Origin: an uncultured Gammaproteobacteria bacterium
GTDB lineage: Bacteria; Patescibacteriota; Microgenomatia; UBA1406; HO2-37-13b
Assembly: GCA_964413645.1 (NCBI GenBank)
Contig: CAYPSA010000007.1
Location: 3,621 to 67,620, forward strand
Direction of reading: 5' to 3'
DNA: 64,000 nt
The notes under the pieces are model-generated. The model was not told the DNA's origin, did not search any database, and worked only from the letters and a program-made list of their open reading frames with translations. The position numbers and the translations under genes are program-made. Positions 1,443 to 48,070 of the stretch are shown here, piece by piece (positions within the stretch are counted from its first letter, which is position 1; the number at the start of each line of letters is the position of its first letter).

Positions 1443-1465
1443 CAACCTCTTAGGTTGCCAGTGCG
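1443..1465. repeat. REP-like hairpin unit (CAACCT-CTT-AGGTTG plus tail CCAGTGCG), inverted relative to the copy at 2259-2281
   Basis: Read directly from the sequence. Its reverse complement matches 2259-2281 at 22/23 positions. Confidence 0.8.
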
Positions 1466-1558
1466 TAATGAATCCCGCAGGTTGCTAAATATTTGCTATA
1501 ATGCTTTTTTTAGACTTATAGGAAGCTCTAAACTGCTCATTTAGGGACTTATAGACCG

Positions 1559-1587
1559 TAGACATTCCAACCTACTTATGCCATAGT
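1559..1587 (+). promoter_or_regulatory. Sigma70-like promoter TAGACA-17-CATAGT, 6 nt upstream of ATG 1594
   Basis: Hexamers and spacing were read from the sequence. The -35 box lies inside a 43-nt element that is repeated at 36715-36757. Confidence 0.45.
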
Positions 1588-1593
1588 ACGCGC

Positions 1594-2238
1594 ATGTCGT
1601 ACAACCAACGTGAATTTATAACAGGTAAGTATTATCACGTTTTCAATAAAACCGCCGATAATAAAACTCCTTTTCTTGATAATACAAAATGTAGTATGTT
1701 TCTACTAACTTCTTATTATTACCGCGCGTCTGACTTAAAAACGAGTTTTTCAAAATGGAAGCAATTTAATAATTCACAGAAAAACAAAATCAAAGAGCAA
1801 CTTCAAAATTCTAATAACTTCAGAGTCGATATTATTTCTTATTGTCTTATGCCAAATCACTTTCATTTTGTCCTTAAGCAAATCAGCGACCATGGAATTC
1901 ATGATTTTATTTCGAATGTTACCAATTCGTTTAAGCGCGCCTACAACATTGAAAATAATCGATTAGGAGCCCTTTTTCTACATCGTTTTCACGATGTCCC
2001 AATTATTTCTAGCGAACAACTTCTCACCGTTTCCCGATATGTTCATCGAAATCCAATAGCTCACAAAGTCAATTTCTCCGAATCCTTTCGCTCGTATCCA
2101 TGGAGCTCATATAAAGATTACTTGGAAATTAGCCCCGATCCGCTCAATCTAACAAATACCAAGCCAGTATTGAGTTATTTTAATAGCTCAAAAAGTTATC
2201 AAAAATTTGTCGAAGATGATTTTATATATGACGAATAG
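1594..2238 (+). CDS. IS200/RAYT-type Y1 (HUH) transposase-like protein
   Basis: HUH motif in CLMPNHFHFVLKQ. Catalytic-Tyr region SRYVHRNPIAHK. Length 214 aa. Confidence 0.7.
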   Translation: MSYNQREFITGKYYHVFNKTADNKTPFLDNTKCSMFLLTSYYYRASDLKTSFSKWKQFNNSQKNKIKEQLQNSNNFRVDIISYCLMPNHFHFVLKQISDHGIHDFISNVTNSFKRAYNIENNRLGALFLHRFHDVPIISSEQLLTVSRYVHRNPIAHKVNFSESFRSYPWSSYKDYLEISPDPLNLTNTKPVLSYFNSSKSYQKFVEDDFIYDE

Positions 2239-3553
2239 TCAACCTAAGAGGTTGCCCCCGCACTGTCAACCTAAGAGGTTGAACTTTTTATTTCTTTTCC
2301 TCCTACTCTTTCTTTTCCCTAACCCCGCTCATGCTGTCACAACGACCATTATCCAGACACCCGCATCCATTTCAAATACACTTTTTTCAATATCTGTAAC
2401 AATTACCGGAGCTAAAGCAGGAAAAAATTACCTGAGAGCAGACATATTTAAAGAAGGATCCACCGAGTATGCCGGAGAAACCCACAACGGACAAGAATGG
2501 TACAGTGACGAAGATGGTACCAAATACGCACCAATCGATATTATAAGCTCAGAAACGCAACTCGCCACACTATCTGCTCGACTCACAACCATTCCAACAA
2601 CCTGGAGCTCAGAAAATTCCTTTTTCCTCCGCATTCGTCGCTATACCGCTTCTGGTAGCTATACAAGCTCCGAAGCAGATGCAAGTGCAATACCAATATC
2701 AATACAATTCCCTACTAATACACCTAGTCCGCCTCCGACAAATACCCCCTCACCAATTCCCACACCTACGACAGAAGTAATAATTGACAATATTTTCATT
2801 ACCGAAGCATTTACCACGCCAGAATCGGGTCAACAAGAATGGGTGGAACTCTACAATAATAACGACTTCGCCGTTACGCTCGATTCATGGCTGATTGACG
2901 ATACGCAAAACGCAGGAAGCAATCCGCAAACTTTCTCACTCTCAATCAATGCAAAATCGTACGCTACAATCGACATGCAATCCACTATCTTCAATAATGA
3001 AGGTGACTCAGTACGACTTCTTGATGATAAAAAACAACAAAAAGATCATTTCACCTATTCCCAAACACAACAGGGAAAAAGTATTTCGCGAAACGCACTC
3101 AATTCACACGATGTCTGTATCACACAAACGACTAAGAACGAATCTAATACCCCATGCATTCCTCTTTCCTCAAGCACAATAAACACCATTAGTCCCACAC
3201 CATATGAATTAGTCTATGAAAGTGGGAATGACGACGCGAACGTTTTAGGCATTAAATCAGAAATTACAGAAAACCTGAATAAAATCAGTCCAACCGCATC
3301 CATTACTTCCTTTCAAGGAATCGGACATGATTACAATAATATCCAACCGTCAGACTATCAAGACGAGCCAATCCGATCCGCACAATTTCAACCCACCATA
3401 TTCCAGCGACCTATATGGACTGGTCTTATCAGAACCGGAACAGCCAGTGCGGCAGGTATTTCCATACTGAATATTATGTTTATTTTATATAGAATGAATT
3501 TATGGCGTCCTCATTTTCGATCAAAAATATTTTCCTTTACTGGCTTCCCCTAG
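2228..3553 (+). CDS. Secreted/anchored lamin-tail-domain (LTD) protein
   Basis: Signal-like NFLFLFLLLFLFPNPAHA, PT-rich linker, LTD-like IFITEA..EWVELYN..GDSVRLLD, and a C-terminal TM. The start is ambiguous: ATG 2207 and 2228 read through the hairpin doublet, and TTG 2279 lies inside the second hairpin. Confidence 0.6.
   Translation: MTNSQPKRLPPHCQPKRLNFLFLFLLLFLFPNPAHAVTTTIIQTPASISNTLFSISVTITGAKAGKNYLRADIFKEGSTEYAGETHNGQEWYSDEDGTKYAPIDIISSETQLATLSARLTTIPTTWSSENSFFLRIRRYTASGSYTSSEADASAIPISIQFPTNTPSPPPTNTPSPIPTPTTEVIIDNIFITEAFTTPESGQQEWVELYNNNDFAVTLDSWLIDDTQNAGSNPQTFSLSINAKSYATIDMQSTIFNNEGDSVRLLDDKKQQKDHFTYSQTQQGKSISRNALNSHDVCITQTTKNESNTPCIPLSSSTINTISPTPYELVYESGNDDANVLGIKSEITENLNKISPTASITSFQGIGHDYNNIQPSDYQDEPIRSAQFQPTIFQRPIWTGLIRTGTASAAGISILNIMFILYRMNLWRPHFRSKIFSFTGFP
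2240..2281. repeat. REP-like hairpin doublet (15-nt hairpin, 12-nt spacer, 15-nt hairpin)
   Basis: Sequence caacctaagaggttg-cccccgcactgt-caacctaagaggttg. The same 42-nt architecture occurs at 25872-25913 and 30016-30057. Confidence 0.8.
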
Positions 3554-4871: not shown

Positions 4872-4886
4872 AAATGTTGTCATTTT

Positions 4887-4962
4887 TGTCATTTCGAAGG
4901 AGTGTTAGCGACTGAGAAATCTCAGCTATCCGAGATTTCTCGCCTAAAGGCTCGAAATGACA
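4887..4962. repeat. 76-nt nested-hairpin dispersed repeat (outer stem TGTCATTTCGA/TCGAAATGACA, inner stem GAGAAATCTC/GAGATTTCTC)
   Basis: Both stems are perfectly complementary. A copy of roughly 85% identity (by eye) lies at 47985-48059. Confidence 0.85.
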
Positions 4963-4970
4963 TAGTAAAC

Positions 4971-24131: not shown

Positions 24132-25859
24132 TCATTTCTTCTGACTTTTAAATATCTCTTCGATTTCCTTCAAACTCGTTATATCTTCTGGGCGTTTGTC
24201 GTCGCGAATGCGCTCAAGTCGTGGAAAACGAAGTGCGTACCCAGCCGTATGTGAAGGAGATTTCGTAAGCTCATCTGCTTTAATTTCCAAAACAATACTT
24301 GGTTTTACCCATACATCCGCTTTCATAAGGTCGGTGACTTCGTAGAGCGTGGGCTTTGTAGGAGAAATAAGTTTTTGGGATTGTTCAAACATTAATCTCC
24401 ACTCATCATCGGTGAGTCCTGTTCCCAGCTTCGCAACAGTTTTATATTTATCTTCTTTTTCATCATATATTCCCACTAAAATCGCCCCTAAACCAAATCC
24501 GGCACGCTTGCCTTTGCCGTAATCGTATCCCATAACTACTGTATCAATGGTATCGTCGATCTTACTACTGTAACTACGTTTATATTTAATCCAATTCCAC
24601 CCTCGTGCACCTGGCTGATACGGTCCATCTTCGCGCTTAACCATGATTCCTTCTAGTCCTTTTTCAATAGCGATATCAAATTCAAGCTCAATTTGATTTG
24701 CGCTCGTAATAATTCGCTCCGGAGAAAGCAAAATCGTATCCTTAACAACATCATTTGTAAGTTTCACCGTTTTATTGAGCAGTCTTCGACGATGGGTCAG
24801 TGGTTCGCCAATTAAATTCATGCCGTCCAAAAACAAAAGATCAAAAGCAAACAGTCGGAGTGGAATTTCTAAAGCCTTTGATGCTATGTCGTATTTGCGT
24901 TTTCGCTGAACCGTTTCTTGAAATGGTAAAAATCCACCTGTTTGAATATCATATCCAATAGCTTCCCCTTCAAAAATTACCGAATCTGCCTTTATTTCCT
25001 TTTGCACTCCAGCGACAATGTCAGGATACATGTGAGTAACATCATCAAGACCGCGAGAGTATAAACGTGTATCTTTTTTATTATGGTGAATCTGCAATCG
25101 GAAACCATCGTATTTTGGTTCAATAATACCTGCGGGAACTTTTTCCAAAATTGACTCAGGTGAAGAAAGTCGTTCGGCTTTCATCATAAGAATAGGAGTA
25201 AAGAGCGTTGGTCCAACAGTTGAAAGACCTTTTACACCTTTTTCTTTTATTACTTTTCCTATAAAACCAAGATCCGGATTCACTTGATACACTTTTTCAA
25301 TCGCTGGTCGAAATGATTTGTCCCCTGCGACCATATACGAAAATGCATCTAAAATGGTCATATCCGAAAATCCTAATCGAAGTGTATTAGTGGGAATGCG
25401 GGCAATAAATCTACATGAAAGTGCGTCCAGACTTTGAATGAGTTCGGTGATAATACTAAGTTTTACTTCTTGAGACCCGTTACCCGTTGCCTGAGTGATC
25501 GAGTAGAGCTTATTGTAAACCTGGACAATTGAAAGGTCAGTCTCCCCGATTGTCGAAACAGATGCACGCAAGCTTTCAATTGTTTTCCCCAAATCACCCG
25601 AGTTTTTATAAGCATTCATAAATACTTTCTCGTCAATTTGCAAACCAGTTACAAAGGCTTTTATAAGGAGCTTCTCTGCCAGTCCAAAATCGGCTTTTTC
25701 ATACAATGGCACGACCCGTCCTTGGAGTAAATATAAAACTTTATAGATCTCATCAGCGGAGACTTTTTCAAATAACTCAGCCAAAATTGAGGTCATCGCA
25801 TTGCGCGAAGGAGTATTTTCAATTTTATCGAAGTAGACTGCTAAATCATGAAACTTCAT
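24132..25859 (-). CDS. lig: ATP-dependent DNA ligase (archaeal/eukaryal-type with N-terminal DNA-binding domain)
   Basis: Adenylation motif EPKYDGFRLQIH, EGIMVK, and an OB-fold C-terminus. ATG 25859 is preferred because the longer ORF reads through the hairpin doublet. Confidence 0.88.
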   Translation of the reverse strand: MKFHDLAVYFDKIENTPSRNAMTSILAELFEKVSADEIYKVLYLLQGRVVPLYEKADFGLAEKLLIKAFVTGLQIDEKVFMNAYKNSGDLGKTIESLRASVSTIGETDLSIVQVYNKLYSITQATGNGSQEVKLSIITELIQSLDALSCRFIARIPTNTLRLGFSDMTILDAFSYMVAGDKSFRPAIEKVYQVNPDLGFIGKVIKEKGVKGLSTVGPTLFTPILMMKAERLSSPESILEKVPAGIIEPKYDGFRLQIHHNKKDTRLYSRGLDDVTHMYPDIVAGVQKEIKADSVIFEGEAIGYDIQTGGFLPFQETVQRKRKYDIASKALEIPLRLFAFDLLFLDGMNLIGEPLTHRRRLLNKTVKLTNDVVKDTILLSPERIITSANQIELEFDIAIEKGLEGIMVKREDGPYQPGARGWNWIKYKRSYSSKIDDTIDTVVMGYDYGKGKRAGFGLGAILVGIYDEKEDKYKTVAKLGTGLTDDEWRLMFEQSQKLISPTKPTLYEVTDLMKADVWVKPSIVLEIKADELTKSPSHTAGYALRFPRLERIRDDKRPEDITSLKEIEEIFKSQKK

Positions 25860-25871
25860 CCCCCTATTATA

Positions 25872-25913
25872 CAACCTAAGAGGTTGGATACGCACTGTCA
25901 ACCTCTTAGGTTG
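25872..25913. repeat. REP-like hairpin doublet
   Basis: Sequence caacctaagaggttg-gatacgcactgt-caacctcttaggttg. Confidence 0.8.
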
Positions 25914-25925
25914 CTAAATTGTAAA

Positions 25926-26108
25926 GTGAACACCAATGCTCAGGAATTCATTTATATCGCTTTTATTCTCCCTGCCCTTTTTGCCTCAACTTTTCTATGC
26001 GAAGGTGCCTACAAAATGTCCAAACACGAAGATGGATTCTTTTTATTTATTATGGGAACAGTGTTCTTAATAGTAATCACTTTCGCCTACCTCTACCTGT
26101 TTAAATAA
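25926..26108 (+). CDS. Small 2-TM membrane protein (60 aa), GTG start
   Basis: In-frame GTG 5 nt downstream of TGcTAAATT. Two hydrophobic helices. Confidence 0.35.
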   Translation: MNTNAQEFIYIAFILPALFASTFLCEGAYKMSKHEDGFFLFIMGTVFLIVITFAYLYLFK

Positions 26109-30015: not shown

Positions 30016-30057
30016 CAACCTCTTAGGTTGCCTGCGCACTGTCAACCTCTTAGGTTG
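30016..30057. repeat. REP-like hairpin doublet
   Basis: Sequence caacctcttaggttg-cctgcgcactgt-caacctcttaggttg. Confidence 0.8.
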
Positions 30058-30079
30058 CCAAATAGAGTATAATACAGGC

Positions 30080-31033
30080 ATGCTAATCGACGAAGTCATC
30101 ATTGATGTATACGCAGGAAACGGTGGACATGGATCCGCTTCATTCCGTCGTGAGAAATTTATTCCTCGTGGTGGGCCTGACGGAGGCGATGGTGGAAAAG
30201 GTGGGGATGTTTATTTTATTGGGGTTTCTGACCTCGGTGCGCTTTTACAATTCCAGTCCAAAAGAAAAATAGAAGCCGAAGATGGGAAACCCGGTGCTGC
30301 CAAAAAGTGTGAAGGAAAAGGTGGAGATGATTTACTCATTCGCATTCCCATTGGAACCAGCATTATTGATTTGCAAACAAACAAAACGATTGAAATCGAA
30401 AAGGTTGATCAAAAAGTATTAATTGCTAAAGGTGGAAAAGGTGGAAAAGGAAATTTTCAATTGCGAAGTGCCAGCAATCAAGCTCCTCCAGCAGGACTTC
30501 CCGGAAAACCAGGTCAATCAACTACTCTTCAACTTAACTTGCGATTTATTGCAGATATTGGATTTATTGGACTTCCAAATGCCGGAAAAAGCAGTCTCCT
30601 TAATGCGCTTACAAACGCGCAGGCAAAAATTGGAAACTATCCATTTACAACGCTCGAGCCAAATTTAGGAAAAATGGACGATCTTATTTTGGCCGATATT
30701 CCCGGACTTATTGAAGGTGCACATGAAGGGAAAGGTTTAGGAGTGCGATTCTTAAAACATATTGCTAAAACAAAGTTGCTGGTACACTGTATTGATGCAC
30801 AGAGCGAAAATGTGTTAGGTGACTATAAAACAATCCGACATGAGCTGGAGTCGTATGATGAAGCGCTTCTTGAAAAACAGGAAATAGTTGTCCTTACCAA
30901 ATCCGACATGGTAACCGAGAAAGAAATTTCAAAGCAAGTTACAAAACTCAAATCACTCAAGAAACCAATCCTTGTCTGTTCTGTTTTAAATGAATCACAA
31001 CTGCAGGAATTAAAAAAAGCTATTCAACAATAA
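30080..31033 (+). CDS. obg: GTPase Obg/CgtA (short, no C-terminal extension)
   Basis: Gly-rich Obg fold (GGDGGKGGDV, GGKGGKGN) and G-domain motifs GLPNAGKSSL and DIPGLIEGA. Confidence 0.92.
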   Translation: MLIDEVIIDVYAGNGGHGSASFRREKFIPRGGPDGGDGGKGGDVYFIGVSDLGALLQFQSKRKIEAEDGKPGAAKKCEGKGGDDLLIRIPIGTSIIDLQTNKTIEIEKVDQKVLIAKGGKGGKGNFQLRSASNQAPPAGLPGKPGQSTTLQLNLRFIADIGFIGLPNAGKSSLLNALTNAQAKIGNYPFTTLEPNLGKMDDLILADIPGLIEGAHEGKGLGVRFLKHIAKTKLLVHCIDAQSENVLGDYKTIRHELESYDEALLEKQEIVVLTKSDMVTEKEISKQVTKLKSLKKPILVCSVLNESQLQELKKAIQQ

Positions 31034-36694: not shown

Positions 36695-36723
36695 ATTGTA
36701 TTAAATGAAGTTACGAATGTCTA
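36695..36723 (-). promoter_or_regulatory. Promoter TAGACA-17-TACAAT, 9 nt upstream of ATG 36685
   Basis: Hexamers read on the minus strand. The -35 box is part of the 43-nt element shared with 1525-1567. Confidence 0.5.
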
Positions 36724-36802
36724 CGGTCTATAAGTCCCAAAAGTTCTGGTTTAGAGCATTGTGATAGAATAATTTGAGCTTTATACCACTACTTCAAAGT
36801 AC

Positions 36803-39523: not shown

Positions 39524-39594
39524 CTCGGGGACAAGGATTCGAACCTCGATTAACGGATTCAGAGTCCGTTGTCCTACCATTGAACGATCCCCGA
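39524..39594 (-). tRNA. tRNA-Gln (anticodon CUG)
   Basis: Manual cloverleaf: acceptor UCGGGGA/UCCCCGA, D stem GUUC/GGAC, anticodon stem ACGGA/UCCGU with loop CUCUGAA, T arm CGAGG-UUCGAAU-CCUUG. CCA is not encoded. Confidence 0.9.
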
Positions 39595-47929: not shown

Positions 47930-47984
47930 TGTTTATTTATAGCATACCCGCGAGGGAAAAAGATAGAGTGCAAGCAGATACCTT

Positions 47985-48059
47985 TGTCATTTCGAAAGAG
48001 CGCTAGCGACTGAGAAATCTCACCTAGCCGAGGTTTCTCGACTACGTATCGAAATGACA
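47985..48059. repeat. 75-nt nested-hairpin dispersed repeat (second full copy)
   Basis: Sequence tgtcatttcgaaagagcgctagcgactgagaaatctcacctagccgaggtttctcgactacgtatcgaaatgaca. Both stems are conserved relative to 4887-4962. Confidence 0.85.
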
Positions 48060-48070
48060 AAGAAAACATG

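Follow-up and report, generated by a model that had tools for sequence, protein, structure and literature searches.

A probable REP/RAYT-type nuclease gene and its hairpin doublets in a Patescibacteria-like genome

Does a Y1/HUH nuclease gene that lies between short inverted hairpin repeats in a Patescibacteria-like genome belong to a REP/RAYT system, in which a REP-associated tyrosine transposase (RAYT) is paired with repetitive extragenic palindromic (REP) sequences? The question was raised by a 64,000-nt stretch of DNA from contig CAYPSA010000007.1 (hereafter the window), in which such a gene is found at 1594..2238 on the plus strand. REP/RAYT is the best example of a transposase whose domestication also involved a population of non-autonomous repeats. 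To our knowledge, nearly all characterised cases are from Proteobacteria, followed by Cyanobacteria and Bacteroidetes. Genomes of the candidate phyla radiation (CPR), or Patescibacteria, are about 1 Mb in size and are thought to hold very little repetitive or selfish DNA. The original prediction for this locus was a REP/RAYT-type unit, and the analysis upheld it: the protein scored as a Y1 transposase (Y1_Tnp), carried the Y---NP motif and matched the structure 4ER8, the gene occupied a single locus, and hairpins were present both at its flanks and as solo copies. We conclude that this Patescibacteria/CPR-like genome probably carries a REP/RAYT-type system, which resembles a REPtron or TIRtron. 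The statement that no such system is known to have been characterised in CPR also stood, as no paper linking REP/RAYT to CPR was found in the literature searched, where one preprint mentioned only a match to KEGG K07491, in an archaeon.

The open reading frame (ORF) at 1594..2238 (+) encodes a protein of 214 aa and contains, as had been claimed, an HUH motif (PNHFHFV) and a Tyr motif (SRYVHRNP). The HUH residues are H89/H91, the catalytic Tyr is assigned to Y149 in RYVHRNP, and the C-terminal tail carries YPWSSY. When the protein was searched against PF01797, the Y1_Tnp profile matched at 29.4 bits, above the gathering cutoff of 23 (E = 1e-6). The sole NCBIfam match was REP_Tyr_transpos (equivalog NF047646), and this was also the only NCBIfam match common to all 40 aligned family members, each of which matched it at E <= 0.001 (best E = 9e-17). 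In the 40-sequence alignment, Y14, H15, N18, M86-P-N-H89, H91, Y149, and N153 were invariant, while P154 and the WSSY serines S171 and S172 were conserved in at least 90% of the sequences. The Tyr motif, YVHRNP, is of the form Y---NP, which is the signature of class 2 (RAYT), whereas IS200 has Y---Q (Quentin 2018, PMC6006769).

Sequence searches against the PDB were null or weak: a single-sequence phmmer search gave no match, and the family profile matched ISDra2 TnpA and 4ER8 weakly (E ~1e-3). Therefore, a fold search was needed. The AlphaFold (AF2) model of the protein had a pLDDT (predicted local distance difference test) score of 91.7 and a pTM (predicted template modelling) score of 0.89, and its top Foldseek match in the PDB was 4ER8, the E. 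coli TnpA-REP with a REP hairpin (E = 2e-7). The next matches were IS608 and ISDra2 TnpA, and the top 21 PDB matches were all Y1 transposases. The family profile aligned to 4ER8 through the HUH motif, WQxRF, YIxxNP, and the C-terminal W/F-S-S/T tail. The homologues of the protein were almost all unnamed metagenomic proteins. The few named ones were mostly labelled as a "transposase" of Patescibacteria, Uhrbacteria, or Beckwithbacteria, with a few weak matches from Bacteroidales/Bacteroidota, and the Obg protein encoded in the window was 56% identical to Shapirobacteria Obg. On the basis of these names and of the Obg match, the description of the genome as "CPR-like" is reasonable.

The copy number and the inheritance of the gene were analyzed using contigs of the same genome, of relatives and of homologue loci, which are labelled L001 and so on. 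L001 is a Logan contig of the same genome, which overlaps the window and extends upstream. L024 and L015 are one contig of a close relative, whose RAYT and Obg are 95% and 96% identical, respectively, to those of the window; L006, L007, and L008 are three assemblies carrying a 65%-identical copy (P0004); L023 is a relative with a RAYT 67% identical, and L020 a relative with an Obg 75% identical. Copy counts of the gene and the repeats cover the 64-kb window (for the repeats, ~67 kb with L001). A tblastn search found one copy of the gene, in agreement with the claim of a single-copy gene, and no tnpB accompanied it. The order ftsE-ftsX, Y1 gene, LTD-domain gene, and CAP gene was the sole context of the exact protein and of the 95%-identical protein P0209 (L024), and P0004 occupied the same slot in L006, L007, and L008. 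The same chromosomal position in 95%- and 65%-identical relatives fits a domesticated RAYT and is unlike an active IS200.

The neighbouring proteins of the window and L006 were 92-96% identical, while the products of the Y1 gene and the adjacent LTD gene were ~65% identical. The nonsynonymous divergence (dN) of the Y1 gene between the two was 0.23, compared with 0.02-0.045 for its neighbours (5 to 10 times). Synonymous divergence (dS) was saturated everywhere in this comparison, and no dN/dS ratio was computable; the dN of the gene was far below dS, and therefore the gene is under purifying selection. Either the Y1 gene evolves much faster than the housekeeping genes, or its alleles at this locus have a deeper history. 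Window positions 1594-3553, compared with L006:10001-12091, form a local hypervariable island of ~2 kb that starts at the repeat upstream of the gene.

The repeats had been described as a pair of inverted 23-mers, each a hairpin with an 8-nt tail. The two copies, caacctcttaggttgccagtgcg at 1443-1465 and cgcactgtcaacctaagaggttg at 2259-2281, were indeed reverse-complementary at 22 of 23 positions, and the tail CGCACTGT plus hairpin recurred at 25891-25913 and 30035-30057, as stated. However, this description had to be amended in two respects. At the latter two sites, which lie away from the gene, the tail and the stem were the same but the loop was flipped (AAG to CTT) in three of the four hairpins. 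In addition, the hairpin with its 8-nt tail is present but makes up only half of the element, and the real unit is a 42-nt doublet with a 27-nt period, composed of a hairpin (15 nt), N4, CGCACTGT, and a second hairpin (15 nt). The hairpin has a perfect 6-bp stem and a 3-nt loop, and the two partners are joined by an asymmetric 12-nt spacer (N4 + CGCACTGT). There were 7 exact matches to CAACCT-N3-AGGTTG in the window and 1 further match at 1 mismatch, against an expected count of 0.10 in 100 dinucleotide shuffles, none of which reached 8. A relaxed hairpin scan of the window gave 9 matches, compared with 0.28 expected. Four doublets were found in the window and a fifth on L001, and all 10 hairpins of these 5 doublets were extragenic. 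The same elements were seen in independent assemblies from different projects (L001, L024-L026, and L023).

The gene is flanked by inverted doublets of 42-48 nt (48 nt with 75% complementarity in the repeat search). The upstream flanking doublet, site A (1443..1484, minus strand), consists of a decayed hairpin, GAATCCCGCAGGTTG, at 1470-1484, followed by ATTA, CGCACTGG, and an intact CAACCT-AAG-AGGTTG at 1443-1457. Its plus strand reads CCAGTGCG at 1458-1465, and a 12-nt partial duplication, ccaacctaaaat, adjoins it at 1431-1442. The downstream flanking doublet, site B (2240..2281, plus strand), begins 1 nt past the stop codon and reads CAACCTAAGAGGTTG, CCCC, CGCACTGT, CAACCTAAGAGGTTG. Three doublets are solo. 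Site C (25872..25913, plus strand) lies between the start of a DNA-ligase gene and a gene for a small protein of 60 aa. Site D (30016..30057, plus strand) reads CAACCTCTTAGGTTG, CCTG, CGCACTGT, CAACCTCTTAGGTTG and lies where a sigma-factor gene (-) and obg (+) diverge, between their -10 boxes. The prfA doublet (L001:1638-1679), ~3.3 kb upstream of the window, has a LytR_C-domain gene on one side and prfA on the other. Of the five doublets, two bracket the Y1 gene, for which the probability by chance was ~0.004 (a rough estimate based on ~70 intergenic regions).

Since the stem is a perfect palindrome, the two loop sequences, AAG at the gene flanks and CTT in most hairpins of the solo sites, represent the hairpin in either orientation. 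The two hairpins of site C have opposite loops (AAG and CTT), and therefore the whole unit can fold as a single 15-bp hairpin resembling a REPIN (REP doublet forming a hairpin), with a predicted energy of -15.6 kcal/mol (z = -8.9). The other doublets were predicted to fold as two small hairpins, and site B as single-stranded DNA (ssDNA) gave two hairpins of 6-7 bp (z = -4.2). A search of the whole window against Rfam showed nothing at the doublets or at the leader of the gene, and the sole match was a tRNA at 39524-39594 (-).

The flanks of more distant homologues (30-68% identity, cases with both flanks present) were also investigated. Six such homologues, at five loci, were each bracketed by a lineage-specific palindrome of their own. 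The flanking repeat was GTCCGACATCGGATGTCGGAC in L010/L011, GCGTGCGTA-WWT-CACCTCGGAGGTG, direct on both sides, in L012, and TGCATAGGTC-CG-GACCTATGCA in L027, which is Beckwithbacteria RBG_13_42_9. The groundwater CPR contig L013 (L013/L014) carried two paralogues separated by 6 kb, and the repeat AGCTTCGCAAGG-N5-CCTTGCGAAGCT, present there in 11 copies in 20 kb, flanked each of them in a different variant. On L021, the gene lay between arrays of hairpins with a 27-nt period, one of three hairpins and one of five. Dispersed copies were present in the window clade and in L013, while L010, L012, and L027 had only two flanking copies in 16-20 kb; TIRtrons, too, are flanking-only in some genomes and dispersed in others (Di Nocera 2013, PMC3733652). 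Each RAYT had its own REP family, with a different palindrome per lineage and two paralogue/variant pairs in L013. Despite this pattern, the downstream doublet of L023 had hairpins identical to those of the window, so that two RAYTs at 67% identity share the same hairpin. The consistent pairing of gene and palindrome in these comparisons is the strongest argument for linking the enzyme to the hairpins, and the separate variant of each L013 paralogue adds to it. A cognate 29-nt palindrome was also seen inside both Y1 genes of L013 (L013:4054 and L013:10495), and these genes were still called full-length. Palindromes inside RAYT genes have been reported for subclass 2.4 (Quentin 2018, PMC6006769).

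The system had further been called recently active. This received indirect backing, in that doublets differed in presence, orientation, and arrangement at orthologous sites of relatives. Between relatives, doublets had also expanded into arrays. The prfA doublet was inverted as a whole in L001 compared with L006, L007, and L008. At site A, the window, L024, and L023 had the spacer in one orientation and L006 and L021 had it in the other, and because the orientation of the spacer varies, inverted flanks are not a conserved feature. L024 shared the layout of site A, and site B was conserved in L024 and L023. L015 lacked both site C and the 60-aa gene next to it, and TTATAC stood at both junctions. 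This gene for a conserved small membrane protein (25926..26108, plus strand) has a GTG start, and the ORF list gives 86 aa reading through the doublet. In L020, the small gene at site C (72% identity) was encoded on the other strand, and the palindrome beside it was a different one, CAACCCC..GGGGTTG. The 60-aa gene behaves as a present/absent/inverted cassette between relatives. Site D was empty in L020, in which both divergent TATAAT boxes were retained. In L015 it was rearranged: a 16-nt palindrome, TCCGCCAGCTGGCGGA, was located within hairpin 1 (L015:9911-9931), and 14 nt of hairpin 2 were duplicated. The palindrome TCCGCCAGCTGGCGGA may represent another small element of palindromic type that is nested within the doublet. 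L007 carried an extra gene of 181 aa (L007:6098-6643) that was absent from its near-identical sister L006 and had no Pfam match. This gene was bracketed by doublets, with its own doublet before it, and the resident hairpin at the junction was altered (hybrid). Hairpin-directed breakage and rejoining would be expected to produce such turnover events, and replication slippage or recombination at palindromes could yield some of them too.

By analogy with TnpA-REP, IS608, and ISDra2 TnpA, we infer that the protein acts on the doublets, and we propose the following chemistry. The cognate DNA of the protein would be CAACCT-N3-AGGTTG, arranged in 42-nt doublets or in longer arrays with a 27-nt period. 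The hairpins would extrude in ssDNA at the replication fork, and the enzyme would bind the hairpin and an adjacent guide sequence. The HUH-bound metal and Y149 would then cut nearby, with formation of a 5'-phosphotyrosyl link, after which the enzyme would rejoin the strands. The gene itself would be immobile, and over evolutionary time its activity would seed, delete, invert, and multiply intergenic doublets. The doublets might also be recombination sites for the Y1 enzyme that delimit small gene cassettes. This is suggested by the Y1 gene between doublets, the bracketed 181-aa gene of L007, and the 60-aa gene at site C, although we hold it to be a doubtful reading with a small chance of being right. 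If true, a streamlined CPR genome would insert, delete, and invert genes by single-strand hairpins beside ready-made leaderless promoters, in loose analogy to the attC cassettes of integrons, with an HUH nuclease as the driving enzyme.

Several results weigh against a REP/RAYT-type system. The NF047646 score of the window protein was 47.9 bits, while the curated cutoff is 80. The family consensus (CLMPNHFHLL, LFQGxFKAV, RYIHLNP, and YxWSSY; ~215-235 aa) corresponds, in an assignment by motifs only, to the motif set NHFH / FQ / YIHLNP of subclass 2.1, in which no REP-like sequences were found (Quentin 2018, PMC6006769). The window protein has NHFH, LFLH, YVHRNP, and WSSY, and is off the consensus at FL (for FQ) and YVHRNP. 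A canonical REP has a 5' guide, the tetranucleotide GT[AG]G, at its hairpin foot. No such guide was found at this position on either strand, where the flanks read CGCACTGT/CAACCT and AGGTTG/YCAAAT. Atypical REPs without GT[AG]G have been reported for subclasses 2.6 and 3 (Quentin 2018, PMC6006769). Known doublets number just 5 in ~67 kb. Among 14 distinct hairpins of the clade, the 3' arm AGGTTG(+YCAAA) was nearly invariant and the 5' arm decayed, and there were no compensatory stem changes, which gives no covariation support for the hairpin. A variant in L020, CAACCC..GGGTTG, would be compensatory, but it lies outside the doublet arrays counted. Conservation of the 3' arm without compensation could point to double-stranded sequence recognition.

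The same holds for several results on distribution and position. The tail + hairpin motif gave no convincing match in GTDB representative genomes, among which the genome of the window is not represented. A single match there, in a Planctomycetia metagenome-assembled genome, was taken as chance, as were three matches in JGI metagenomes (L003-L005): L004 and L005 were single hairpins in G+C-rich, unrelated-looking sequence, and L003 was without convincing genes. The prfA, upstream, and downstream doublets (3/5) were unchanged in place in the close relative L024, and the prfA doublet was also kept in place in the L006 lineage. Because the doublets are conserved in place in relatives, their mobility is low. 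The solo doublets all directly adjoin -10 boxes, which fits a regulatory role too, and the flanking arrays of L006, L012, and L021 were direct, as in IS200. The description of the arrangement as "classic proteobacterial" accordingly failed on the absent GT[AG]G guide, the NCBIfam score below cutoff, and the direct flanks of L006/L021. For the first two of these reasons, and because its motifs are subclass 2.1/TIRYT-like, the locus was filed as working like a REPtron/TIRtron and not as a canonical member.

Some of these results would suit an IS200-like insertion sequence, autonomous or recently immobilised, made up of a left-end hairpin, tnpA, and a right-end hairpin, with solo doublets that are derivatives resembling miniature inverted-repeat transposable elements (MITEs) or footprints. 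The hairpins tightly bracket the gene in every family member, the flanking units of L006, L012, and L021 are direct like IS200/IS605 ends, and the family motifs resemble Bertels' Group 1, the most IS-like RAYT group (PMC5581495). Allele replacement could also yield a gene at 65% identity among neighbours at 92-96% (window vs L006). However, the gene is single-copy in the window, has the same neighbours on every contig with the protein or its close relatives, and lacks tnpB, and the locus is conserved across lineages with saturated synonymous sites. The protein has Y---NP instead of Y---Q, and its 214 aa with a C-terminal tail exceed the ~150-aa IS200 core (PMC6006769). An insertion sequence of this kind is therefore quite unlikely. 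An unlikely explanation, too, is that the doublets are host regulatory or architectural double-stranded DNA sites at promoters, for a transcription factor or nucleoid protein, that the Y1 gene is simply one of the genes with such sites, and that the Y1 enzyme does not act on them. It agrees with the arrangement ATTATA/doublet/..TATAAT-N6-ATG at sites C, D, and prfA, where the solo doublets abut leaderless-type -10 boxes, with the presence of the prfA doublet in place in three lineages, and with the 3' arm and flank (AGGTTG-YCAAA) being more conserved than the 5' arm without compensation. Yet it leaves unexplained the unrelated lineage-specific palindromes on both sides of the Y1 gene in 6/6 distant homologues and the own variant of each L013 paralogue. 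In L020, obg keeps both -10 boxes without a doublet, which is thus dispensable for that promoter, and relatives differ in the orientation of the asymmetric spacer at one and the same site. A TTGCCA-like motif was rejected as a -35 element, since it lies 5-12 nt from the real -10 boxes, which is the wrong spacing.

It is hardly credible that the hairpins arose by chance or through assembly errors, or that they are simple terminators. One hairpin, at 2266-2282, was flagged as terminator-like and has a T-rich run behind it, but a T-run was found at this hairpin only, and most copies lie upstream of genes and are without T runs; a terminator role was rejected as general. The 7 exact copies against 0.1 expected argue against chance, and artefact is in effect refuted by the independent assemblies (L001, L024-L026, and L023) that carry the same elements.

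The favoured REP/RAYT-type system is an atypical form of a kind already known, in which a domesticated transposase is accompanied by repeats. The REPtron is the E. coli-type RAYT/TnpA-REP with flanking REPs or bacterial interspersed mosaic elements (BIMEs) (PMC2817692, PMC3333891, PMC3479197; PDB 4ER8). Like a REPtron, the system of the window has a single-copy, vertically inherited Y1 HUH gene with Y---NP, whose model has its best structure match in 4ER8, with copies of a short hairpin repeat on both sides of the gene and solo pairs of this repeat elsewhere in intergenic DNA; like BIMEs, the repeats cluster in dimers and arrays. Unlike a REPtron, it is without a GTAG/GTGG guide, its hairpin (perfect 6-bp stem and 3-nt loop) is much shorter than E. 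coli REPs, and the doublet is joined by a conserved asymmetric 12-nt spacer and is usually not an inverted REPIN pair. The protein is below the NCBIfam RAYT cutoff, the host belongs to CPR and not to Proteobacteria, and the known copy number is small.

The terminal inverted repeat (TIR)-associated tyrosine transposases (TIRYT) and their TIRtrons (Di Nocera 2013, PMC3733652) have been equated with TnpA-Y1 subclass 2.1 (PMC6006769) and Bertels Group 1 (PMC5581495). In motifs only, the family consensus CLMPNHFHLL, LFQGxFK, RYIHLNP fits NH[YF]H / FQ / Y[IV]HLNP of TIRYT/subclass 2.1. The length of ~215-235 aa with a C-terminal SS-motif tail is also TIRYT-like, and, as in TIRtrons, the gene has flanking repeats; these make up families of modest size in certain genomes, and some are "double palindromic" and arranged in dimers. 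In contrast to TIRYT, the flanks have hairpin repeats and no GGGGWSAS motif. Every family member examined here has hairpins, whereas Quentin found no REP-like hairpins in subclass 2.1, and the window protein departs from the consensus of that subclass by FL for FQ and by YVHRNP. With the TnpA of IS200/IS605 (IS608, ISDra2), the protein shares the HUH/Y1 fold and, by analogy, would be expected to recognise subterminal ssDNA hairpins; hairpins lie on either side of the gene, direct in some relatives. It differs from IS200/IS605 in having Y---NP and not Y---Q, in its greater length, and in its one copy at a conserved locus without tnpB, and the window hairpins also occur without the gene.

A REP/RAYT-type system at this locus would bring REP/RAYT logic into a new host group, Patescibacteria/CPR. 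If the association holds genome-wide, more Y1 enzymes would be tied to repeat families, subclass 2.1 / Group 1 having been reported as REP-free. A minimal substrate of a 15-nt hairpin and a 12-nt spacer would be convenient for biochemistry. If the reading is true, one cause of promoter micro-rearrangements in unculturable organisms would have been identified.

The promoter context of the gene and the doublets was also analyzed. A promoter-like site of the Y1 gene is located at 1559..1587 (+) and reads TAGACA, 17 nt, CATAGT, 6 nt, ATG, with 9/12 consensus positions and TG before the -10. This block was conserved upstream of the orthologues in L006, L021, L022, and L023, and its position suggests that the Y1 mRNA is leaderless or near-leaderless. 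Many genes had TATAAT 5-7 nt before the start codon (30066-30082; 25851-25871 (-); L001:1690-1705; and others), a spacing that suggests widespread leaderless mRNAs in the genome. A promoter inside the doublet was considered, in which, in one orientation, AGGTTG/ACAGTG makes TTGACA and, at two sites, TAGGTT follows 17 nt later owing to the CTT loop, but it was rejected as general because it was not conserved in relatives (tails CGCACTAC and GGCACCGT). A 24-nt block, GGGACTTATAGACCGTAGACATTC, with a TAGACA -35-like hexamer was common to the promoter region of the Y1 gene, at 1531-1567 (+), and to 36716-36752 (-). The latter copy lies upstream of a 55-aa Cys-rich ORF, where it reads TAGACA-17-TACAAT, and the block may be a shared promoter or regulator site. 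A second repeat family was present at 4885-4965 and 47983-48065, as two copies, 89% identical, of a palindromic MITE-like element of ~85 nt, TTTGTCATTTCGAA...GAGAAATCTC-N8-GAGATTTCTC...TCGAAATGACA. This element was in the same place in the close relative (~L024:13310-13390), and L006 had a different short repeat, CTGTCATCCTGAGCAAAGCGAAGGATCTCAG, instead.

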